From contig OZ244034.1 of NCBI GenBank assembly GCA_965215185.1, forward strand, positions 2,336,001-2,400,000: 64,000 bases of DNA. The letters are read 5' to 3'. The notes under the pieces are model-generated. The model did no database searches. It worked only from the letters and a program-made list of their open reading frames with translations, and was not told the origin of the DNA. A program made the position numbers and the translations under genes. Shown here piece by piece: positions 3,463 through 64,000 of this stretch. Every line of letters begins with the position of its first letter. Positions within the stretch are counted from its first letter, which is position 1. This DNA comes from Acidimicrobiia bacterium (GTDB lineage: Bacteria; Actinomycetota; Acidimicrobiia; Spongiisociales; ZC4RG35).

Positions 3463-3696
3463 TGAGGTTCCCCCGGTTTGGCGGACTGTTTTGGTTGGTG
3501 TTCATGCCACCAGTTGTTGTTGGTGGCGGTAGTTTACGGGGCTTTGTTGGTTGTTGTAGGAGTGTCTCCTTTCGGGGTTGTACCAGCCTTCGATGTACTC
3601 GAAGATTGCCAGGCCCTGCTGGTGGCGGGTCTCCCATTTCTGGCGGTCCAGCAGTTCTGTTTGGAGGGTGGCGAAGAACGATTCCACGACGGCGTT
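3463..3696 (-). mobile_element. IS3-family right end with transposase C-terminus
   Basis: Terminal TGAGGTTCCCCCGGTTTGGCGGAC; minus frame NAVVESFFATLQTELL...AIFEYIEGWYNPERRHS. Confidence 0.85.
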
Positions 3697-4355
3697 GACG
3701 CCCCTATAGTCAAATTTTGGGTTTAGGGGGTGGTGTGTTGTCGGGTTTTGTGGTCGGTCATGACGCGTTGGTAGACCTCGCGGGCGAGGAAGCGTTTCAG
3801 GCAGCGGATGATGTCCTTTTTTGAGAGGCCCTGGGCGGTGCGACGAGCGACGTAGTCGATGGTGGGCTAGTGGAATCGCATTCGTACTATCGCTACTCGG
3901 TACAGCGCCGCGTTGGCTTGACGGTGCCCGCCTCTGTATAGACGATGCCTGTTGGTCTGTGCGGAGGAAGCCGGAATCGGACACGTGCCACAGAGTTTGG
4001 CGAATGCGGCCTCGGAACGGATCCGTTCGGGGTTGTCACCGAACACGATGAGAAGCTCCGCCGCGGAATCGGCTCCGATGCCAAAGCCGTCTCGCAGTGT
4101 TGGGGAGGCTTGGGCGGTGAGGTCGTCGAGCACGGTGTCGTGGGAGCGGATCTCGGTGTCGAGGTGGAGCCAGCGGCGTGCTAGTGCTCTTGAGTGAGTA
4201 CTTGGCGGAGGCTGTGGGGGTGTTGATCACCGAGACCCGAAAGCGTGCGCAACGGTTGATGAGCGCTTTGTTAGAAAGCCCATCGAGGGATTCGCGCAGC
4301 TCGGCCGGGGTGTTGACGATGATTGCCTTGAGGGTGATGATCGCCGAGGTTCGGC
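3697..4355 (-). mobile_element. IS110-family element D: 3' half of recombinase (pseudogene) plus right end
   Basis: FGDNPERIRSEAAFAKLCGTCPIPASS...RHRLYRGGHRQANAAL; in-frame TAG at 3867-3869; right end TTGACTATAGGGGCGTC abuts IS3 codons AAC GCC. Confidence 0.85.
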
Positions 4356-4790
4356 GAGCCTGTATACATGTCTGTGTGAGGTGGGTTCTTTATTGCTGTG
4401 GCTGGTGTGAGAGCCGGTCCGAGAGGAGAGTGTTTTGATGCCTATTGAACATGATGTGACGGAGGCGGCTGTGGTGGCTGCTGGTGTGGTGTCTGATGAG
4501 GTGGTGGAGGCGGTGGTTTCGGACGCTGCTGCTGGTGGTGTGGACCTTCTGGGTCCTGATGGGGTGTTGGCTGAGTTGACGAAGCGGATTCTGGAACGTG
4601 CTTTGGCTGAGGAGATGACCGATCATCTGGGCTATGAGTCCGGTGATCCGATGGGTCATGGTACGGGTAAGAACCGTAACGGGTCCTCTCCCAAACAGGT
4701 GCTGACTAAAGATCGGCGCGGTGGATTTGGACATTCCACGGGACCGTAACGCTACGTTCGAACCGAGGATCGTTCCCAAGGGCGCCCGGC
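4356..4790 (+). mobile_element. IS256-family element: left end and 5' part of transposase (frameshifted)
   Basis: End GAGCCTGTATACATGTCTGTGTGAG; LLGPDGVLAELTKRILERALAEEMTDHLGY...RNG and DIPRDRNATFEPRIVPKG. Confidence 0.9.
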
Positions 4791-5230
4791 GCCGTAGCTG
4801 CCGGTGCCTTCCACCCCAACCCGCACCACACGACCCTGGGATCTCAACCAGCCGCCCAGTTCCTCAAAGCCGGTTGCATCGGCCGGGAACGGAGCGGTTC
4901 CCAGGACTCGACCGGCGGTGTCCACTACCGCCGCGACATGACAATCGCGATGGGTGTCCACCCCGCCAAACACCTCAACCAGGCTCTCTTTTTGTGACAT
5001 GAATGTCTTCTTCTTCCTTGGATAGACTCGCGGGTATCACCGGACCGGAAGCGGTGGACAGAACACTCATGATGGTGTGGAGAAGCAAGGCTCCTATAAG
5101 GTCACATCCGCTCCCGGGTCGGGGAGTGTCCCCAGGCCGAAAGCAGGCCGACAGATCATGATAAGGCACAAACGGCCAGTTTGTCAAGGGGTCAGACCCG
5201 CCCCGACCAGGGACCCCACCATTATCGAGT
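4783..5230 (-). mobile_element. IS110-family element C: left end, bridge-RNA region and recombinase N-terminus
   Basis: ORF from 5000: FGGVDTHRD...GVEGTGSYGAG; left end ACTCGATAAT at 5230; fused to IS256 through the microhomology cccggcgc. Confidence 0.85.
5045..5215 (-). ncRNA. Putative IS110-C bridge RNA (left target guide TTGACAAAC at 5187-5179, right target guide CATG, donor guides ATAGGAGC and GAGTG)
   Basis: Scaffold aligns with the A1 and A2 non-coding ends; variable segments fall at the guide positions; boundaries approximate. Confidence 0.75.
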
Positions 5231-5589
5231 GTTTTGCAAATCGCTTTTCGGGGGTGGGGGTTGTTTGAGCTTTTTGGTGGGGTGGTTTGGGGTTGGGGCG
5301 AGTTCTGGGGGTTTAGTGGGGGGTTTTCCAGTAGCCGGTAGAGGTGGCGGGCGATGTACCGTTTGAGGCAGCGTCGTGCTTCGCGGGTGGTTTTTCCTTG
5401 GCTGATGCGTTTGGCTATGTAGGCCTGGGTTTTGGGACAGTGGCGGGTGCGGGTGATGGCCATGTTGTGGAGCGCGCGGTTGAGTTGGCGGTCACCGCGT
5501 CGGTTGAGTCGGTGGCGGGTGCGTTGCCCTGAGGAGGCTTGGAGGGGTGCTACGCCGGCTAGCCGAGCGAAGGCGGCTTCGTTACGGCA

Positions 5590-5766
5590 GCGGCAGCGTC
5601 CGAAACCACCGCCTCCACCACCTCATCAGACACCACACCAGCAGCCACCACAGCCGCCTCCGTCACATCATGTTCAACAGGCATCACAACACTCTCCTTT
5701 CGGGCCGGCTCTCACACCAGCCACAGCAATAGAGAACCCACCTCACACAGACATGTATACAGGCTC
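5590..5766 (-). mobile_element. Second IS256 left-end fragment, inverted relative to the 4356 copy
   Basis: Reverse complement of roughly 4356-4530 with few differences. Confidence 0.9.
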
Positions 5767-6249
5767 GGTTTGAGCGCCTCGGCGGACGGTTTCCAGTACC
5801 CGCAGGGCTTCTCGGTCTCCCCGAGCGCGGGGAGCCGAAAGCCGGGAGCGTCCCAGCGCCTGGCGGGCGGCTCGTCGAGCGTCCAACGCGTCGGTTTTGG
5901 CGCCGTCGCGGGTCGGGTGGGGATGGCCGAACTCTATTACCCATTCACCAGCCTCAGAAAGGTAGTCGGTGACTCCTGCTCCGTAGCTACCGGTTCCTTC
6001 CACCACCCACGCTCGTTCCGCGGATGTGTGCTGGTTTGTCCACTCCAACAGTTGAGCATATCCCATGCTGGTTGTCCCAAAGCGCGCAGATGTCAACTCT
6101 CCGGTGGTGGCAGTGTCCACTACCGAAGCGGTGATCCAGTCACGGTCAGGGCCTATTCCTATCGTATGTTTTACCATCTCGGCTAGCATCGTATTTGTTC
6201 CTCTTTTCTGGTGTTACCGGTTAGAGCTGGCGTACCCCCGAGGAGCGGC

Positions 6250-6460
6250 AACCGTTACGGCAGACCTGTGATGGGTCACACCCATTTGGGTGGACAGGCT
6301 TCTGATCAGGCCAGCAACGAAGCACCCAGGCGGGCGCAGCGAAGGGTGTCGGACACATCGATTTGAAGACACGGACCGGTCGGTAAAGACAGAAACGGTC
6401 AGGGTTTTGGAGGGTCACGACACCACCGCTGCGCCTAGCCTGGCAGACTCTGAGAGCACC
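6250..6460 (-). ncRNA. Putative IS110-B2 bridge RNA (left target guide CCAAAACCC at 6410-6402, right target guide CAAATCGA at 6365-6358)
   Basis: Scaffold aligns with the B1 left end; donor guides AGAAGC and CACAG conserved; boundaries approximate. Confidence 0.78.
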
Positions 6461-6462
6461 CC

Positions 6463-7686
6463 CTACATACTCACAGGGTTTGGTGCGGTGAGCCATTGGT
6501 GGTATCGGGTGGCGAGTTGGTGGTTGTGGTAGAGGCCTCGTTCGAGTTGTGAGAGGCGGTTTGGGTGGGCGTGGACGGCTGTGGCGGCCTGAGCGAGAGT
6601 GGTCCGGGTTTTTTGGCGTAAACAGCGTAGATCGGCGCCGTTGGGTGTTGAGGGTGGGTCGGTCAACAGTCGGTAGACCTGGCGGGCGATGTGGCGTTTC
6701 AGACAGCGGATGATCTCTCGGCGGGTTTTGCCTTCCGCCCGGCGTTTTTCGACGTATTCGATGGTGGTCTGGTCGCAGCGCATCCGAGTGGTGGCGATCC
6801 GCCACAAAGCGTTGTTGGCTTGGCGGTCGCCACCGCGGTTGAGGCGATGGCGCACAGGTCCTGAGGATGCCTGGACGGGACTGGCGCCGCACAACGCCGC
6901 GAAGGAAGCTTCCGATCTCATGCGTTCGGGGTTGTCACCAGCTGCGACCAATAAGGCGGCGGCGGTGTCCGGGCCGATCCCTGTGGTGGCCAACAGCGCC
7001 GGGTTGGCCCGGGCGCAGAGATCTTTGATCCGGGTGTCGAGTTCTCCGATCTCTGCGGTGAGGGTCTGGTATCTGCGGGCCAAGAGACGGAGGACATGTT
7101 TGGCGTAGGTGATGGTGGTGTCACCATCACCCGGACGAAAACCGGCACAGACCTTCCCGCGGGCTTTGGGGGAGAGCCCCCGAAGTTGGTGTTTGACCTG
7201 GTCGGGAGCAGTGACCACCAGGGCGTGCAGCTGGTTGATGGCCTGGGTACGGGCCTTGATCGCCGAACGGTGGGCCACTGTCAGCATCCGTATTGCTTCT
7301 ACTGGTCCGTTCCCGCTTTTGGGCAACCCGGTGGCCTGCCCGTTCAAAGCAGCCCGCGCCGCTGCCCGGGCGTCTGTGACATCGGTCTTGCCGAAGCGGC
7401 GGCGTAACTGGCGGTTGGGCCGGTTCACTTCCACCACCTCAACACCAATGCTCATAAGGTGGCGGGTCAGGCCGGCGCCGTAGCTGCCGGTGCCCTCCAC
7501 CCCGACCCGCACAACACGACCCAGGGACCCCAACCAGTTGTTCAACCGTTCATAACCGGCGACATCGGCCCGAAACGGCGCCGAGCCAAGGACCCGACCG
7601 GTGGCATCCACCACCGCCGCGACATGGGTATCACGGTGGGTGTCGACCCCACCAAACACAATCCGATCATCCTCTGACATATGCAT
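6463..7686 (-). CDS. IS110 recombinase A1 with C-terminal XRE-type HTH extension
   Basis: DEDD residues (GVDTH, GVEGTG, KTDVTDA), ASSG serine, RHRLNRGGDRQAN; tail DLRCLRQKTRTTLAQAATAVHAHPNRLSQLERG; last codons come from the B2 end. Confidence 0.92.
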   Translation of the reverse strand: MHMSEDDRIVFGGVDTHRDTHVAAVVDATGRVLGSAPFRADVAGYERLNNWLGSLGRVVRVGVEGTGSYGAGLTRHLMSIGVEVVEVNRPNRQLRRRFGKTDVTDARAAARAALNGQATGLPKSGNGPVEAIRMLTVAHRSAIKARTQAINQLHALVVTAPDQVKHQLRGLSPKARGKVCAGFRPGDGDTTITYAKHVLRLLARRYQTLTAEIGELDTRIKDLCARANPALLATTGIGPDTAAALLVAAGDNPERMRSEASFAALCGASPVQASSGPVRHRLNRGGDRQANNALWRIATTRMRCDQTTIEYVEKRRAEGKTRREIIRCLKRHIARQVYRLLTDPPSTPNGADLRCLRQKTRTTLAQAATAVHAHPNRLSQLERGLYHNHQLATRYHQWLTAPNPVSM

Positions 7687-7753
7687 CTTCTCCTTCAAAG
7701 GTAGAATTCGTTTCTGTTCTCTCTGACCCGAAAAAACGGTGGACAGACCACTC

Positions 7754-9153
7754 TGTGAGTATTGGGGGGGCCTTGTAGAGGCTGCCAGGATTGGCGTCAG
7801 CGGTGGTGTCGTGACCCGAGACCACTCTGACCTTTGTGTCTTTGCCGTGATATGTCCGACACCGCCGCGACGCCCCTGGGCGTTCCGTTGCTGGCCTGAT
7901 CAGAAGCTTGTCCACCCATGGGGTGTGACTCATCACAGTCCTGCCGTCACGGTTTGCGCCTTGTGAGGCACTAGCCCAGTTCGCACAAGAAAGAGAAGGT
8001 TTCTTATGTTGGCCACAATGGTAGAGCATGTGATCGGGATCGATCCTGATCGTGACCGGGTCACCGCCGCGGTAGTAGACACTTCCACCACCGGAGAACA
8101 AGCGACTGCGGTGTTCGGAACCACCCGGCTGGGATATGACCGGTTGTTGAAATGGGCAGACCAGCACACTCAGACGGCTGAGCGGGTGTGGTCGGTGGAA
8201 GGCTCGGGCAGTTACGGAGCAGGCGTGACCACCTATCTCGCTGCCCGAGGTGAACTAGTGGTGGAGTTCAACGATCCCACCCCTACCCGCGACGGCGCCA
8301 AAACCGACGCACTGGACGCTCGGCGGGCCGCTCGCCAGGTGCTGGGCCGTCCTTGGCCATCTGTCCCGCGGGCTAGGGGAGACCGCGAAGCCTTGCGAGT
8401 GTTGGAGACCACCCGCCAGGGCGCCCAAGGGGCCAGAGTATCGGCCATCAACCAGCTAAAAGCCCTGGTAGTGACCGCGCCAGTCGATCTTCGGGACCAA
8501 CTCCGAGGTCTGAGCACAACTGCTCTGGTGGCCAAGTGCGCGGCGTTTCGAATCCGACCCGCCTCCGTCAACGAACTGACCGCCACCAAACAAGCCCTAC
8601 GTTCTACAGCCAGACGCATCCGCAACCTCAACAATGAAATAGCAGAGCTGAAAACGCCCATCGCCGAAATGGTCACAGCCGCAGCTCCGCAACTGCTCGA
8701 CCAATTCGGGATTGGTCCGGTCACCGCCGCCCAAGTGTTCATCGCCTGGTCCCACCCAGGCCGATGCCGCAACGAGGCCGCGTTCGCTCGCCTGGCCGGC
8801 GTAGCACCCCTCCAAGCCTCCTCTGGACAACAAACCCGCCACCGGCTAAGCCGCTACGGCGACCGCCAACTCAACCGCGCCCTCCACACCATCGCTATCA
8901 CCCGCGCTCGGGACTGCCCCAAAACCCGGGCCTACATCGCCAAACGCATCAGCCAAGGAAAAACCACCCGAGAAGCCCGCCGCTGCCTCAAACGGTACAT
9001 CGCCCGCCACCTCTACCGACTCCTACAAAACCCGCCCCCAACCCCGGCCGAACCAGCCCCACCGTTCCACTCGGAAACGCCGCAACACCCCCACAAGCTC
9101 AAACATCCTCAAATCCCCGCCAAAAGCCTCGATTTGGAGAACATAGAAGCATC
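7754..9153 (+). mobile_element. IS110-family element B1, apparently complete, TC core at both junctions
   Basis: ...AGACCACTC|TGTGAGTATT...CATAGAAGCATC|ACATGG; removing it restores the A-type non-coding end. Confidence 0.92.
7770..7960 (+). ncRNA. Putative IS110-B1 bridge RNA (left target guide AGACCACTC 7819-7827, right target guide GTGA 7847-7850, donor guides AGAAGC 7902-7907 and CACAG 7934-7938)
   Basis: All four guide segments match the observed target and the reconstructed circle junction; boundaries approximate. Confidence 0.85.
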
Positions 9154-9292
9154 ACATGGCAAGAGCAAGGCTCCTATCAGGTCACAGCCGCCCTGTCGGG
9201 AGAGCACCGCCCCCAGGCCGGAAGCAGGCCGACAGATCACCACAAAGGCACAACAGCCAGGTCGGAGTCGAGTCAGACCCGCCCCGGCCTAG
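8006..9292 (+). CDS. IS110 recombinase B1 (ORF reads through the right end into flanking DNA)
   Basis: GIDPDRD, VEGSGSYG, KTDALDA, APLQASSG, RHRLSRYGDRQLNRAL. Confidence 0.92.
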   Translation: MLATMVEHVIGIDPDRDRVTAAVVDTSTTGEQATAVFGTTRLGYDRLLKWADQHTQTAERVWSVEGSGSYGAGVTTYLAARGELVVEFNDPTPTRDGAKTDALDARRAARQVLGRPWPSVPRARGDREALRVLETTRQGAQGARVSAINQLKALVVTAPVDLRDQLRGLSTTALVAKCAAFRIRPASVNELTATKQALRSTARRIRNLNNEIAELKTPIAEMVTAAAPQLLDQFGIGPVTAAQVFIAWSHPGRCRNEAAFARLAGVAPLQASSGQQTRHRLSRYGDRQLNRALHTIAITRARDCPKTRAYIAKRISQGKTTREARRCLKRYIARHLYRLLQNPPPTPAEPAPPFHSETPQHPHKLKHPQIPAKSLDLENIEASHGKSKAPIRSQPPCRESTAPRPEAGRQITTKAQQPGRSRVRPAPA

Positions 9293-9300
9293 GGGCACCT
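9154..9300 (-). ncRNA. 5' part of the putative A1 bridge RNA (left target guide TCGACTCCGACC at 9271-9260, right target guide GGTG); continues at 7753-7735
   Basis: Near-identical scaffold to 61855-61990 with different guide segments. Confidence 0.8.
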
Positions 9301-9312
9301 ATAAGTATGAGT

Positions 9313-9845
9313 GGTTGGAGTCGACGTGGACGGGCGTAAACATGTGCTGGGGGTATGGCTGGGCGACGGCGGTGAAGGCGCCAAATACTGGTTGTCGGTA
9401 CTTACCGAGATACGCAACCGAGGCCTCGAAGACGCGCTGATCGTGTGCTGTGACGGCCTGAAAGGGCTCCCGGACGCGATCGAGGCGACATGGCCCCAGG
9501 CGCTGGTGCAGACCTGTGTGATCCACCTGCTGCGAGCCTCTATGCGGCTCTGCAGTTGGAAAGACCGAAAAACCATTGTGGCGGGCTTGCGACGCGTTTA
9601 CACCGCGGTAAACGCCGAAGCCGCTGTTGAGGCGTTGGACGAGCTCGAGGAACAATGGGGAAATCACTATCCCGGCGTTATACGAATATGGCGCCAGGCG
9701 TGGGAAGAGTTCACCCCGTTCCTGCGGTTCCCGCCAGAGCTTCGCAAGGTCGTGTACACAACCAACGTCGTCGAAAGCGTCCACTATCAACTACGGAAAG
9801 TCACCAAAACCAGGGGGCATTTCCCCACCGACCAATCCGCCCTCG
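9313..9845 (+). mobile_element. IS256-family transposase middle/C-terminal fragment (continuation of the 4356 element)
   Basis: VGVDVDGRKHVLGVW...CCDGLKGLPDAI...QTCVIHLLR...YTTNVVES...RGHFPTDQSAL. Confidence 0.9.
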
Positions 9846-9989
9846 CACTTGGATCGCGCCTCGCCCAACAGCATCCAAATGCTGGGGCCGAGCGAGTTGA
9901 TATCGGTGGCCTTGAAAGTGATCCACGGGTGGGACTTCAGATAGGAGCGCACAAGTGCCGCTCTACTATCGGTATATTGTTTTGACCAT
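9846..9989 (-). pseudogene. Short N-terminal remnant resembling a Fic-family protein
   Basis: YLKSHPWITF...IWMLLGEARSKCE, recalled as a Fic-family N-terminus; no Fic motif left. Confidence 0.5.
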
Positions 9990-41084: not shown

Positions 41085-41158
41085 GCGGGTGTAGTTCAAT
41101 GGTAGAACACGAGCTTCCCAAGCTCGGAGTGGGGGTTCGATTCCCCTCACCCGCTCCA
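41085..41158 (+). tRNA. tRNA-Gly (CCC)
   Basis: GCGGGTG acceptor stem, anticodon arm CGAGC-TTCCCAA-GCTCG, GGTTCGATTCC T-arm, encoded CCA. Confidence 0.96.
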
Positions 41159-60383: not shown

Positions 60384-60510
60384 CCCCGCACCCAAACTGG
60401 GCACCGCCCGCCCACCAACAGCCGGACCGTCGATCAACGCTCGTTCCTAGCGGCCCGGCATCCAGGCCGGGGCTTGATCGGCGTAGTCGTTGTCGATGCT
60501 CCTATGGTTG

Positions 60511-61772
60511 TCAAATCGAGTTTTGGTGGGGTGTGAGGGCGGTGAGCCATTGGTGGTATTGGGTGGCGAGTTGATGGTTGTGGTAGATGCCTCGCTCGAG
60601 TTGTGAGAGGCGTACTGGGTAGGTTTGTAGGGCTGTGGCGGCGTGGGTGAGGGTTGTTAGCGCGTTTTTGCGTAGACAGCGAAGATGGGCGCCGTTGGGA
60701 GTTTCGGGTGGATTGGTGAGCAGGTGGTAGATCTGGCGGGCGATGTGGCGTTTCAGGCAGCGGATGATCTCCCGGCGGTTTTTGCCTTCTGTTTGTCTTT
60801 TTTGGGCGTAGGCGATGGTGGTCTGGTCGTAGCGCATGCGGGTGATGGCGATCCGCCACAGGGCATTGTTGGCTTGGCGGTTGCCGCCCCGGTTGAGACG
60901 GTGGCGTATGGTCCGTCCCGACGACGCCTGGACGGGACTGGCGCCGCACAATGCTGCGAAGGACGCTTCCGATTGCATGCGTTCGGGGTTGTCACCAGCG
61001 GTGACCAACAGGGCAGCGGCGGTGTCGGCGCCGACTCCGGAGGCGGCTAACAGCGCCGGTGTCGGCGCCGACTCCGGAGGCGGCTAACAGCGCCTGGGCG
61101 CAGAGATGGTTGATCTGGGTGGTGAGCTCTTCGATCTCGGCGGTGAGCGCCTGATATCGGCGGGCCAGGGAACGCAGCGCCTTTTTGGCGTAGGTGACGG
61201 TGATGGTGGCTGTTCGGGGACGGAAACCGGCGCAGGCCTTGACGCGGGCTTTGGCCGGCAGTCCCCCCAGTTGGTGTTTGACCTGGTCGGGGGCGGTTAC
61301 CACCAAAGCGTGCAGCTGGTTTATGGCCTGGGTGCGGGCTTTGGTCGCCGAACGGCGGGCCACCGAAAGCATCCGTATTGCTTCCACCCGACCGTTGCCG
61401 CTTTTGGGCACCGCAGTGGCCTGTCCGTTGAGAACCGCCCGTGCCGCTCCTTGGGCGTCGGTGGCGTCGGTCTTGCCCAACCGGCGGCGCAACTGCCGGT
61501 TGGGACGGTTCACCTCTGTCACCTCGACACCGGCCTCGGTTAGATAACGGGCCAGGCCGGCGCCGTAACTGCCCGTGCCCTCTATACCGACCCGGACCAC
61601 TCGACCGTGTGACCCCAACCAGTCGCCCAGTTGCTGATAACCGGCCTGCATCGGCCACGAAGGAGGCTGTTCCCAAGACCCGACCGGTGCTGTCCACCAC
61701 CACCGCCATATGAACATCCCGGTGGGTGTCCACCCCACCAAACACAATCCGATCATCCTTTGACATATGCAT
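60511..61772 (-). pseudogene. IS110 recombinase A2 with C-terminal HTH; frameshift near 61650 and a 37-bp duplication
   Basis: Three frames homologous to A1; tandem 37-mer at 61021-61057 and 61058-61094. Confidence 0.9.
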
Positions 61773-61809
61773 CTTCTCCTCTCAAAGGTAGAATTCGTTT
61801 CTGTTCTCC

Positions 61810-61990
61810 ACTGACCCGAAAAAGCGGTGGACAGACCACTCAGAATGAGGGAGAAGCAAAGCTCCTATCAGGTCACAGCCGCTCTGTCGGGAGAGCACCG
61901 CCCCCAGACCGAAGGCGGGCCGACAGATCGACTCAAAGGCACAATCGGCCAGGTAGCTGTCGGGTCAGACCCGCCCCGGCCTGGGGGCAC
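61810..61990 (-). ncRNA. Putative IS110-A2 bridge RNA (left target guide GACAGCTACC at 61961-61952, right target guide GTCG, donor guides ATAGGAGC and TGAGTG)
   Basis: Guides match the flanks GACAGCTAACC|GAC and the circle junction ATAGGAGCATC|ACTCA; boundaries approximate. Confidence 0.82.
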
Positions 61991-64000
61991 CTATAAGTAT
62001 GAGTGGTTAGCTGTCTCAGGTTGCTGCCATCCGCATACATGACAAAGATCTCATCATCACCGTTAAGATCACTGGTGAAGGCAATTGCATAGCCATCCGG
62101 GGACCACACAGGACCACGGTCATCAGCGTCGTTGTCGGTGAGTCGCTGCTTGTTGGACCCGTCCGCGTCCATCACATAGATCTCATCATCACCGTCACGG
62201 TTACTGGTAAAGGCCACGCGGGTCCGATCCGGTGACCACACCATCCCATCTGCCGGGCTGTAGTTGTTGTCGGCCAAGGCTTGCGGCTCGCCCCCCTCCA
62301 CATTCACTGCGAATAGCCCGAAGTTACGACCGCGGGCATTGGCTACATACAACTGCCCACCATCCAGAAACCAGACAAATCCTTCCACCGAAGTGGTGTC
62401 GTCGGTGAGCTGCCGAACATATCGGCCTTGGTCTCCCACCACAAATACCTCCAGGTCGAAGCCGGAACCCCGACTGGTGAAAGCAATTGTGGCACTGTCG
62501 GGCGCCCAAGTTGGATCCCACACCTGATAGTCACTGTCGGTCATTTGGTACAGGTTGCCGCCAACCGGATCCACCACAAAGATCTCACTGTCCCGGCCCC
62601 GGCTGCCCAGAAAAGCTATCCACATGCCGTTGGGAGACCACACCGGCCCAGTGTCATTGTCGTTGTTGTAGGTGAGTTGCTGCTGATTGGCGCCGTCATC
62701 ATCCATCAGGAGAATCTCGCTTCGGTAGGAGCGGGTGAAGGCGATGGTCTTGCCGTCAGGCGACCAGGCCTGTTCGCTTTCAGCAATGTGGTTGCTGGTG
62801 AGTTGTCGACGCGTCCCACCTTCGGCCTCTACCACGAAGATCTCGGTGTCACTGCCCAAAACGCCCTGATAGGCCACATACTTGCCGTCGGGGGACCATT
62901 CGGGATGGCTGTCCTGGATAGAGTCATCGGTGATTTGCTGTAGGTTGCCACCATCAGAATCCACTACAAAGATGTCTCCATGCAGGGAGAAGGTAATCCG
63001 CTTGCTGTCAGGCGACCACGCCGGATAGGCACCGTGTACAAGGAGGCGCGGGTTTCCGCCGTCCGAATCCATCAGAAAAATATTTGAATGGCTATAGAAG
63101 GCGATGGTTGTGCCGTCAGGCGACCACGCCAACGCCCAATCGCTGTAATCGTTGTCGGTGAGTTGTCGATCGTTAGTACCGTCCGAATCTATCAAGTAGA
63201 TCTCGGCGTTGGGATCTCCCTGAGGGTGACTGTGGTAGGCGATTCGCTTACCATCCGGTGACCAAATCAGGTCATCGATGGAAGCCCTTGGGACAGTTGG
63301 CGCAGATCCCCGCCATCGGCATTAACCACGAAGAGATCCCCCGAAGAGACAAAAGCGACTTGGGTGCCGTCAGGCGACCACGCCGGAAGCCGACCACTGG
63401 CAAGATATTGCTTGCCTTCCCCATCCGCATCAATAGCGAAGATCTCACCCCGGCTGTGGAATACAATTCGAGAACCGTCAGGCGACCACGCCGGGTCGTC
63501 TCCGTGAGTCAGGATTCGGTGATTGCTGCCGTCAGCATCCATTACCACTGCGTCATCATCCTGTCCGCGGGTGTCGTACCTGGTGAAAGCGATCCGCATC
63601 TTGGCTTGTTCAGCAACCGCGTAATCCGCAACCGGCAGGGCAACCAGACCCAGAGAACGGGCCAGGAATGTGGCCATCTCCCCTCGGGTCACCGGAACCT
63701 CGGGACAGAATCTCGCCGGGTCAGTGGCACACCCTCGCGTAACATTGGCGGCCGCCAAAGAGTCGATGCTCCCCGCGTGAGTGTTGCCCACGGTGTCAAC
63801 AAACCGGCGGAAGCAGCGGGGCGCAGACCCATGGCGCGGACGAGGAATGTTGCCATCTGCCCACGACTCACGAAAGCATCGGGACAGAACTTCTCCGGAT
63901 CGGCGCTGCGACCTTTGGTTAGACCCAACTCGGCCAGCCTTTCCACATACGGTGCCCACCACTGTCCGGCGTCCACATCCGCGAATCGCGAGGAAATCAC

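Follow-up and report, generated by a model that had tools for sequence, protein, structure and literature searches.

The 64,000-nt stretch of an Acidimicrobiia bacterium genome analysed here (the window) carries, at positions 4786-9312 and within an IS256 transposase gene, a nest of IS110 elements. We read it with considerable confidence as a stack of successive bridge-RNA-guided insertions, in which three lineages of one IS110 clade entered an IS256 copy and each other and were later eroded by deletions. In this chain of hosts, A1 lies in IS256, both B(+) and B(-) lie in A1, and C lies in B(-). The window contains five IS110 left ends of the form TGAC-[12 nt]-TG(G/A)C...CTT-[5-6 nt]-GATnTGTC and no others. 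Their scaffolds are of two types, one (A-like) seen in A1, A2 and C and one (B-like) in B(+) and B(-), as a preliminary description of this DNA had proposed. Its borders for the nest were also accurate, 4783-4793 being a deletion junction and 9312 the left-end tip of A1. The features are given below with the target loop (TBL), its left and right guides (LTG, RTG) and the left and right donor guides (LDG, RDG).

4355-4793, plus strand: left part of the host IS256-family element (left tip and N-terminal part of the transposase gene; Pfam Transposase_mut)
4783-4793: deletion junction between IS256 and truncated C, with microhomology CCGGCGCC common to both (comparison with the intact IS256 paralogue)
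4786-5230, minus strand: element C (A-like), truncated, an N-terminal transposase-gene remnant plus a complete left end with TBL 5150-5194, LTG 5179-5190 (CCCTTGACAAAC) and RTG 5158-5162 (alignment)
5231-6475, minus strand: element B(-), broken, its right end cut by C just past GATTTGCAAAAC; transposase pieces 5294-5594 and 5770-6189; left end 6190-6475 with TBL 6352-6417, LTG 6402-6413 (CCTCCAAAACCC), RTG 6360-6365, LDG 6296-6307 and RDG 6266-6277
5588-5767, minus strand: inverted 180-nt copy of an IS256 left tip inside the B(-) transposase gene, 97% complementary to 4355-4534
6476-7753, minus strand: proximal part of A1 (right-end stump, transposase gene and inner left end; Pfam DEDD_Tnp_IS110 and Transposase_20, alignment with A2)
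7741-7753, minus strand: RDG block of A1 (alignment with A2)
7754-9153, plus strand: element B(+), complete, 1400 bp, with TBL 7812-7856, LTG 7816-7827 (CCGAGACCACTC), RTG 7843-7848, LDG 7898-7909 and RDG 7927-7938
9154-9312, minus strand: distal left end of A1, tip at 9312, with LDG 9169-9180, TBL 9231-9275, LTG 9260-9271 (TCGACTCCGACC) and RTG 9239-9244
9313-9985, plus strand: right part of the host IS256 transposase gene, from motif VGVDVDG (Pfam Transposase_mut, 1.5e-54; NF033543, IS256 family)
60495-62004, minus strand: element A2 (A-like), transposase gene split into several frames, ends uninterrupted; left end with TBL 61922-61967 and LTG CCGACAGCTACC

The left part of the host IS256 has an intact genomic paralogue at 94.8% identity; the deletion at 4783-4793 removed 258 bp of IS256 together with the 3′ portion of C and what was left of the B(-) and A1 right ends. 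The inverted IS256 tip stands in place of ~330 bp of B(-). Reading frames run across element borders: the final codons of the A1 ORF (6463-7698, 411 aa) extend into B(-), and the B(+) transposase ORF (8006-9292) continues past its right end into A1. C is 98.5% identical to a full copy at genome positions 1097038-1097496 and B(+) 98.6% identical to a copy at 1665806-1667211; most copies are old and broken. The region as a whole is decayed: it bears two microhomology deletions and a stray tip of IS256, and more IS fragments lie to its left.

Both recombinases scored above the cut-off of 140 for NCBIfam NF033542, ‘IS110 family RNA-guided transposase’ (A1, 193.5 bits; B(+), 172.1 bits), and contained the N-terminal DEDD RuvC-like domain and the C-terminal Tnp domain (Pfam PF01548 and PF02371); their PDB relatives are ISCro4 (9t56) and IS621 (8wt6). 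The left ends, ~208 nt in A and ~252 nt in B, lie upstream of the gene, and consensus folds of eight A and eight B left ends showed two stem/internal-loop modules, with few compensatory changes at eight pairs per alignment; a single fold of the B(+) left end gave z = -2.53, 3 of 200 shuffles being equally stable. In the alignments inspected, in which the donor-loop sequences are constant, the LDG of the A type (..ATAGGAGC..) equals the right-end tip ATAGGAGCATC and the reverse complement of its RDG (CC+ACTCAT) the left-end tip; in the B type the corresponding pairs are ..AGAAGC.. with ATAGAAGCATC and CTGTGA with the left-end tip. Together these comparisons of sequence support ends that would encode bridge RNAs like that of IS621, each with one loop for the target and one for the donor. 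In the target loop, a 12-nt left guide would read the same as the target top strand, the 2-nt YC core included, and a right guide would be complementary to the 3-6 nt that follow; the donor loop would match the tips of the element itself, ATAG(G/A)AGCATC at the right end and the tip of the left end. The A right end holds TTGACA; judged by eye, joining of the ends would place a CATACT hexamer 17 nt further on, a putative junction promoter. The A gene stops inside the right end, and the B gene continues through it. Rfam gave no match for the scaffold sequence. Membership of the IS1111 group was rejected, the guides lying upstream of the gene and not in a long non-coding downstream region.

As described in the available parts of Durrant et al. 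2024 (PMC11208160), IS621 and the IS110 group share with these elements a recombinase built of DEDD and Tnp domains, a left end that precedes the gene and encodes the bridge RNA, the identity of the LTG to the top strand and complementarity of the RTG, a donor loop equal to the right- and left-end tips, the duplicated 2-nt core and the −35 box in the right end. The core is CT in IS621 but YC (TC or CC) here, the scaffold sequence differs, and the natural targets of IS621 are REP elements, whereas here they are parts of other insertion sequences.

Evidence for guided insertion came from the flanks. Scored at the 8 variable positions of the 12-nt block, the LTGs of 20 left ends genome-wide (15 distinct guides) matched their own left flank at a mean of 6.53/8, compared to 3.1/8 in 198 cross pairs, and none of 100,000 permutations reached the observed mean. 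The proposal that each left guide in the window fits its own flank held for all five (C and B(-), 5/8 each; B(+) and A1, 7/8 each; A2, 8/8). RTGs were complementary to the right flank at 3.78/6 versus 1.34/6 (9 non-redundant pairs; 1 of 100,000 permutations), and the predicted right target of A1, ACCACA, is close to the ACCACG of an intact IS256 paralogue. Thus, both target guides covary with their flanks, and guide-programmed nesting is supported. Weak left matches occurred at A1005 (4/8) and, in addition to C and B(-), at B860 and B1324 (5/8 each); among relatives, one site scored 3/8 and one 4/8, and 4 of 35 rows had no score. The right half was weak at A374 (1/6) and at B(+) (2/6), so that B(+) seems to have entered on a left-half match and not at a fully programmed site.

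In a different explanation, donor half-match recombination, incoming circles recombine at sites resembling their own or a resident's donor arms (LD or RD), by donor-loop and not target-loop recognition. The Hu et al. 2026 and Xie et al. 2026 preprints on expanded or tandem IS110 loci, in the parts available, report off-target insertion through the LD or the RD alone, tolerance of one-arm matches (B(+) in A1 likewise relies mainly on the left arm) and, as in the nest, repeated insertion into occupied loci with no target immunity. Within our data, the right-end insertion site lies 11 nt ahead of the resident LD, the ATAG right guide of C equals the LD start, and 24-nt B-type left-tip remnants at genome positions 971233 and 1095994 resemble products of recombination at LD-like sites. 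Nevertheless, we consider this explanation highly improbable and rejected it for the nest: all four nest junctions match the target-loop left guide of the invader and neither its donor guides nor the resident LD or RD, the crossover of C falls before the resident LD and not at its core (the resident LD is touched only by C's right side), and constant donor arms cannot yield covariation over 15 different guides. The loci in those same parts of the preprints (Hu et al. 2026; Xie et al. 2026) grow through resident donor-arm matches and tandem duplication, whereas here the invader's target-loop guides match conserved sequences of another IS110 lineage; the portions available contain no statement on IS110 guides aimed at other IS110 elements.

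Sites lacking individual insertions were found in other samples, although the short-read contigs leave some nest junctions unbridged. The form free of B(+) is represented by contigs from runs X1 and X2 in which 7751 connects to 9152, with 1400 bases absent and two letters fitting both sides; intact A1-like right ends in other samples represent the form free of B(-); and a contig from another sample with an intact B(-)-like right end (loose end at 5230) represents the form free of C. Insertion was scarless with a duplicated 2-nt core, as judged from the B(+)-free contigs and from A979, which lies in a B gene with the frame kept. These data make it barely credible that an unguided IS graveyard, or chimeras arising from homologous recombination or misassembly, only mimics nesting. 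The decay of the region, with its deletions, stray tip and IS fragments, would fit such an origin, but host sequence resumes exactly past the invaders, another C-like copy sits within the A1098 right end, the genome assembly is one 3.12-Mb contig, and the permutation tests were strongly significant.

The nest as a guided stack would have been built in five steps, the second to fourth in an order that we infer. A1 would have inserted first, at the conserved VGVDVDG motif in the transposase gene of IS256, where target reconstruction places a copy of the core at 9313-9314 on the A1/IS256 border. A B-type element, B(-), would then have entered the A1 right end just upstream of its −35 box; C would have entered the right end of that element just past a −35-like box; and a second B-type element, B(+), would have entered the DNA coding the right donor guide of A1. 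Finally, another IS256 insertion and two microhomology deletions would have broken B(-) and C. The preliminary description had correctly placed the target of B(+) in the donor-loop DNA of A1, whose right-donor-guide block is split between 7753 and 9154, and that of B(-) in the A1 right end, immediately before the GATTTGACA box. For C, it was right about a right end, immediately after the −35-like box GATTTGCAAAAC, but mistaken about its owner, which is B(-) and not an A-type element. Such insertions would presumably have cost the host element its junction promoter or bridge RNA.

Immobilisation of the victim, claimed for every insertion, is only partly justified: the donor guides and end tips are common to all A-type copies, so that a victim is probably immobilised no more than in part. 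According to published work, excision requires donor-arm recognition and may act in trans.

Insertion at these sites recurs. C-like copies (98.5% identity) occupy three different host right ends, in the window, at genome position 1097 kb and in an X2 contig. A sister species (G003) carries two B copies with a single difference over 1352 bases; an A-type donor loop houses one of them, non-IS DNA the other, and the host A element matches its own flank. This B insertion into an A-type donor loop is independent and recent. Genome-wide, 9 of the 20 left flanks lay in A- or B-type IS110 DNA, which makes up 0.99% of the genome, and of 418 predicted unoccupied target matches, 34 fell in IS110 DNA (40 shuffles: mean 5.5, maximum 19). 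The notion of an IS110-versus-IS110 chain stood as far as recurrent insertion of IS110 into IS110 at a few conserved functional sites is concerned, but the targets are not IS110-specific. Other copies of these families occupy conserved transposase-gene motifs (IS256, IS3 OrfA and ISL3) or a PD40 repeat. Strikes of IS110 on IS110 therefore form a subset of guides aimed at conserved multicopy DNA; three B copies in unique DNA, one of them within a UvrD-like gene, show that some targets are not repeats. Survivorship is a confounding factor, since an insertion into a dead IS escapes purging and the share seen in IS DNA is thereby inflated. Taken together, the IS110 elements of this bacterium aim mostly at conserved parts of other mobile elements. 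Guides of these lineages appear, in this genus, to fall mainly on functional parts of mobile elements, which are for that reason conserved and multicopy: right ends of IS110, DNA of the donor loop, and motifs in the transposases of IS110, IS256, ISL3 and IS3. Such sites are abundant and do the host no harm, enough to account for the persistence of lineages with guides of this kind.

A stronger reading, which we regard as rather unlikely, holds that guides were selected to disable rival IS110s through their bridge RNA, junction promoter or recombinase gene, with mismatches sparing self. The strikes fall precisely on functional sites (DNA of the RDG, the −35 region, the GDRQxN motif), and they are reciprocal: lineages A and B hit each other at homologous GDRQxN codons, with A374 and A979 in B genes, and B373 and an element ending at 1613045 in A genes. 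The C-like elements have ...ACAAAA in their own right end and target ...ACAAAC, the difference lying at the core; the A909 guide tracks the TTTGCAAA variant of its host end; and B entered an A-type donor loop independently in two species. However, the IS256, IS3 and ISL3 genes and the PD40 repeat are also targeted, as conservation and copy number alone predict, so that aiming at conserved multicopy DNA accounts for the pattern as well as competition does. A self-targeting element destroys itself, and self-sparing is therefore expected without warfare; with donor guides shared, victims may still move in trans. A broader version, tentative and only slightly less doubtful, envisages a guild of RNA-guided parasites, a diversified IS110 clade whose guides track rivals' functional sequences (donor-guide DNA, the right-end −35 and stop-codon region, and catalytic or structural motifs of IS110, IS256, ISL3 and IS3 transposase genes) and spare self by mismatches at or near the core. 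Any selective purpose may be presumed at most. If the pattern is selected and not incidental, it would represent a natural RNA-programmed arms race among insertion sequences, one in which resident ISs would become less active and chimeric or piggy-backing elements would arise.

IS4321, IS5075 and attC-targeting IS1111 members have Tn21-family inverted repeats or attC as targets, and were reportedly described by Partridge & Hall (2003) and by Post & Hall. These too are DEDD-transposase elements aimed at a functional end or site of another mobile element, but they belong to the IS1111 group, with a downstream guide RNA and subterminal inverted repeats, whereas ours belong to the IS110 group. Unlike IS4321 and IS5075, the present elements strike one another within their own family, and the DNA affected is that of the bridge RNA, the junction-promoter region and the recombinase gene. 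The REP-targeting IS110 members IS621, ISPpu9 and ISPpu10, as far as the available accounts describe them, show the same specific insertion into conserved, multicopy, harmless sequence, with REP in place of the transposable elements and one repeated coding motif found here. Work by Choi et al. in 2003 is said to belong with these REP-targeting members.

Bridge recombinases are under development as programmable genome editors, but apart from REP elements and a few transposon ends little is known of what natural guides target. Here a single genome provides 15 naturally occurring guide/target pairs that share one scaffold, among them full matches, one left-half match, and polymorphic insertions together with their empty sites. 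These pairs suggest a rule by which guides in nature come to settle on the best-conserved stretches of other mobile elements, the RNA-coding and promoter DNA of relatives among them. The evolution of guide repertoires, the mutual limitation of ISs and the movement of nested IS110s as composites, or their generation of hybrids, become testable as a result. The target of A2 in the window is a PD40-repeat motif, ...NLRQLT|DND, in its host gene.

ORF, repeat and BLAST maps together with end alignments showed that window positions 4355–9985 are a single element of the IS256 family; stacked IS110-family elements split its transposase gene (Pfam Transposase_mut; NCBIfam NF033543). Three of the five IS110 elements in the window are A-like (A1, A2 and C) and two B-like (B(+) and B(−)).

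Layout of the nest and of the fifth IS110 element (window coordinates)
4355–4793, plus strand: left part of the IS256 element
4786–5230, minus strand: element C, truncated
5231–6475, minus strand: element B(−), broken
5588–5767: stray IS256 tip of 180 nt inside B(−)
6476–7753 and 9154–9312, minus strand: element A1, interrupted, 411-aa ORF intact
7754–9153, plus strand: element B(+), complete, within the A1 left end
from 9313: right part of the IS256 element
60495–62004: element A2, the fifth IS110 element

At the 4783–4793 junction, IS256 is joined to mid-gene C via a common CCGGCGCC, with 258 bp of IS256, the 3′ part of C and the right-end remainders missing, and ~330 bp of B(−) is replaced by the second IS256 tip. 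An rve-type integrase fragment (3502–3680) and an IS110 transposase remnant (~3753–4377, minus strand, 45–56% identical to A and B) lie to the left of the IS256 tip, indicating that the IS256 host itself sits in older IS debris.

The A and B recombinases scored 193.5 and 172.1 bits, respectively, above the cut-off of 140 for the NCBIfam model "IS110 family RNA-guided transposase", and both contained the two Pfam IS110 domains; their closest solved relatives were the ISCro4 and IS621 transposases. On every feature that could be tested, the elements belong to the IS110 group. Two modules were predicted both by consensus folding of left ends (eight A-type, eight B-type) and by folding the B(+) left end singly (z = −2.53); in each, a stem closes a large internal loop, inside which is a small hairpin. 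The loop of the first module carries the left guide on its 5′ side and the right guide on its 3′ side. In the second module, both sides correspond to the element itself: the 5′ side reads like its right-end tip (ATAGGAGC for A, AGAAGC for B), and the 3′ side can pair with its left-end tip (for A, ACTCAT following CC; for B, CTGTGA). This is the arrangement of target loop and donor loop set out for IS621 by Durrant et al. 2024 (PMC11208160). RNAalifold also paired the left-end tip with the right donor guide (RDG) in the A-type alignment, which we read as designed complementarity rather than RNA structure. No Rfam family matched the IS110 ends, either at the gathering threshold or at E up to 1; the sole Rfam match in the window was a tRNA gene at 41085–41155. 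By eye, the A-type transposase ORF stops at a TGA inside GATTTGACA (for example, at window 60495–60530), so that the stop codon overlaps the −35 box; the B-type ORF meets no stop up to the right-end tip, and in the circle it would terminate within the left end.

Scanning with the pattern TGAC-[12]-TG(G/A)(C/T)...(C/T)T(T/G)-[4-9]-GATnTGTC gave five hits and no more in the window, one at each left end (C, B(−), B(+), A1 and A2), in agreement with the five scaffolds of the preliminary description. The whole 3.12-Mb genome contained 20 sites with a recognisable left-end tip; matches at genome 2004449 and 2834471 had no left-tip motif and were discarded as chance. The 12-nt block corresponds to the DNA immediately left of the element; of eight variable positions, 5 match in C, 5 in B(−), 7 in B(+), 7 in A1 and 8 in A2. 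The left guide matched its own flank at 6.53/8 on average across the 15 distinct guides, versus 3.1 for 198 mismatched pairs, and none of 100,000 shuffles reached the observed mean, confirming the earlier claim that each left guide matches the flank of its own element. The second variable block predicts the sequence on the right side of the element when its reverse complement is placed behind a TC: across nine non-redundant pairs, 3.78/6 positions matched, versus 1.34 for cross pairs, and one of 100,000 shuffles was as good. The right flank of A1 is deleted; its predicted ACCACA compares with ACCACG in an intact IS256 paralogue. For B(+) in A1, nine left bases fit and only 2/6 on the right, versus 5/6 for B1667, a 98.6%-identical sibling elsewhere in the genome. 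The A1 insertion thus resembles the one-arm matches reported for IS621 by Xie et al. 2026, although the cases classed there were donor-arm ones.

The three IS110-in-IS110 insertions of the nest each fell in a functional part of the element hit, as had been claimed from the sequence. B(+), flanked by ...ACCACTC and ACATGG..., lies in the A-type donor loop and splits the RDG block of A1 (RDG 7741–7753; left donor guide 9169–9180). B(−), with the guides CCAAAACCC and TC+GATTTG, sits in the right end of A1 after ...CACCAAACCC, at the point where intact A-type right ends go on with GATTTGACAA..ATAGGAGCATC. C is inserted after GATTTGCAAAAC, which is the −35-like box of B(−) itself because B-type right ends read GATTTGnnnnnnATAGAAGCATC; the right end struck by C is therefore that of B(−). 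The C guide CTTGACAAAC has two mismatches at the B(−) site and is perfect over nine bases at an A-type right end at genome 1097 kb, where a 98.5%-identical C copy is cleanly inserted with the remaining CTAGGAGCATC on its far side.

Logan contigs from four public runs were aligned to window 4300–9800; these contigs are too short to bridge every nest junction, and uncovered parts say nothing. A contig in runs X1 and X2 joined 7751 to 9152, skipping 1400 bases with two letters that fit both sides, and is an A1-like left end without B(+) that shows the 2-nt core. In both runs, loose ends at 6476 went on with the reverse complement of GATTTGACAAACATAGGAGCATC and represent an A1-like right end lacking B(−). 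One X2 contig, which ended at 5225, led from a C-like left end directly into an A1-like right end, and another carried an intact B(−)-like right end without C. The two runs come from different studies (X2 is labelled sponge metagenome), and since the run with the fullest cover of the region may be the source sample itself, X2 alone is clearly independent. These empty sites show that the insertions are real, separate and polymorphic events. The alternative that C marks a tandem junction at the right-end tip of A1 was ruled out by the right-end alignments and by the intact B(−)-like end in X2, placing C inside the right end of B(−).

In the mechanism that we propose, element circles guided by their own bridge RNA would recombine with a target of ~8–10 bases, a YC core and 3–6 further bases, and lineages whose guides match conserved, multicopy and harmless sequences would persist; in this IS-rich genome such sequences would be functional parts of transposable elements, relatives included. 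An insert in the RDG would break the bridge RNA in cis and part the gene from the junction promoter, and an insert on either side of the −35 box would put 1.4 kb between box and tip. Immobilisation of the victim is probably incomplete, because all A-type copies have common donor guides and tips, and because excision is reported to require only donor-arm recognition (Xie et al. 2026 preprint), with action in trans left open in a 2026 Nature paper. B(−) and C lie downstream of the A1 transposase gene (6463–7698) in the same orientation; as an idea only, transcription running on from A1 could produce their bridge RNAs, and the same Nature paper describes such read-through as driving excision.

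Genome-wide, A/B-type IS110 DNA amounts to 30,871 bases, or 0.99% of the genome, and contained 9/20 left flanks; a tenth (copy A909) lay, by eye, in a short right-end-like fragment. Four kinds of site recurred among the targets.

Targets of A- and B-type copies (genome coordinates unless marked as window)
Recurrent site (i), right end just before GATTTGACA: window, 370984, 978243
Recurrent site (ii), right end just after the −35 box: window, 1095994, 1612692, 1621752, 1656975, A909
Recurrent site (iii), donor-loop DNA, opposite strand: window, 1324 kb, 909304
Recurrent site (iv), GDRQxN codons of the recombinase gene: A374 and A979 in B genes; B373 and the element ending at 1613045 in A genes
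A1: IS256 VGVDVDG motif
A1005: IS3-type OrfA, ~17 copies
A3012 and A3102: ISL3 transposase gene
A2: PD40 repeat motif
B1667: UvrD-like gene
B375 and B860: unique DNA

Hits at site (iv) in both A and B genes indicated that GDRQxN targeting is reciprocal; the right flank of A374 is rearranged. Predicted 14-nt targets of the 15 guides, searched genome-wide with at most two mismatches, gave 418 matches, 34 of them in IS110 DNA versus a mean of 5.5 (maximum 19) over 40 guide shuffles. The extra matches came chiefly from C (11), B373 (8) and B(−) (5). The copies lying in IS256, IS3, ISL3, PD40, UvrD-like and unique DNA have targets outside IS110. Because purging is weaker in IS DNA, the proportion of insertions observed there is an overestimate. 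Most A/B copies are old and broken.

B981 (genome 978220–981105) is bordered on either side by the 8 nt of its left guide (AATTTGAC) instead of a 2-nt core alone, and left of it stands a complete B-type right-end tip followed by the same 8 nt. At site (i), the A-type right ends at 971233 and 1095994 carry no more than 22–24 nt from the start of a B(−)-like left end (TGTGAGTATGTAGGGGGTGCTCTC at one, a diverged version at the other), and GATTTGACA follows without a gap; these remnants could reflect deletion between the true tip of the right end and an LD-like (donor-arm) word within the left end. At 971233, 978220, 1095983 and 1283655, A-type right-end tips are followed by a similar flank, GG(T/C)(G/A)CG(G/A)TTCA, which suggests another recurrent target. 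Three copies, equal in score, represent a third IS110 family with 35% identity to A (984078–985106, 1647211–1648239 and 2652789–2653817); each copy has one in-frame TGA, as does a homologue in a relative's genome (G002), and this may reflect recoding, a frameshift or inactivity of the element.

IS1111-group members are known for specific insertion into other mobile elements, such as Tn21 inverted repeats and attC. Repeated insertion into occupied IS110 loci via donor half-matches is described in a preprint (Hu et al. 2026). In the literature on natural targets, nested insertion and hyperparasitism of IS110, as far as its accessible parts extend, we came upon no account of IS110 guides directed at IS110 elements; the supplementary tables of Durrant 2024, Siddiquee 2024 and Hu 2026 may list such targets. 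Within that scope, target-loop guides directed against the donor-loop DNA, right-end promoter region and recombinase motif of other IS110 lineages, reciprocal and with natural empty sites, are apparently undescribed.

The A/B families were present in 15/16 other genomes of the genus and in 26/41 genomes searched, the only tally in which one unpublished genome (G027) is counted; related genomes are non-independent samples. The scaffold pattern gave 48 matches in five relatives and none in the reversed control. Thirty loci fetched from relatives yielded 35 rows, some being one site seen twice, of which 31 were scorable and four had no recognised tip. Left guides matched at 5/8 or better in 28/31 scored rows; one row scored 3, and one site seen twice, the G002 locus L042/L047, scored 4/8 between B flank and guide. 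A complete B element of G003 has entered an A-type donor loop at GGACAGACCACTC|, and the host A matches its own flank, which is a different one. Another B copy of G003, in non-IS DNA, has one difference in 1352 bases; the G003 B is 82% identical to B(+) and its host A 77% identical to A1. This combination of near-identical copies and divergence from B(+) and A1 indicated an independent and recent donor-loop hit in another species. By eye, A-types in relatives also occupy an ISL3 motif. Multicopy B-types at L018, L021, L026, L038 and L043 (genomes G008 and G012) have the left guide CCAC(A/G)ATTTGAC and adjoin sequence resembling the IS256 terminal repeat (...CCTCACACAGA(C/G)(G/A)ATTTGAC), and this lineage may be specialised on IS256 ends.
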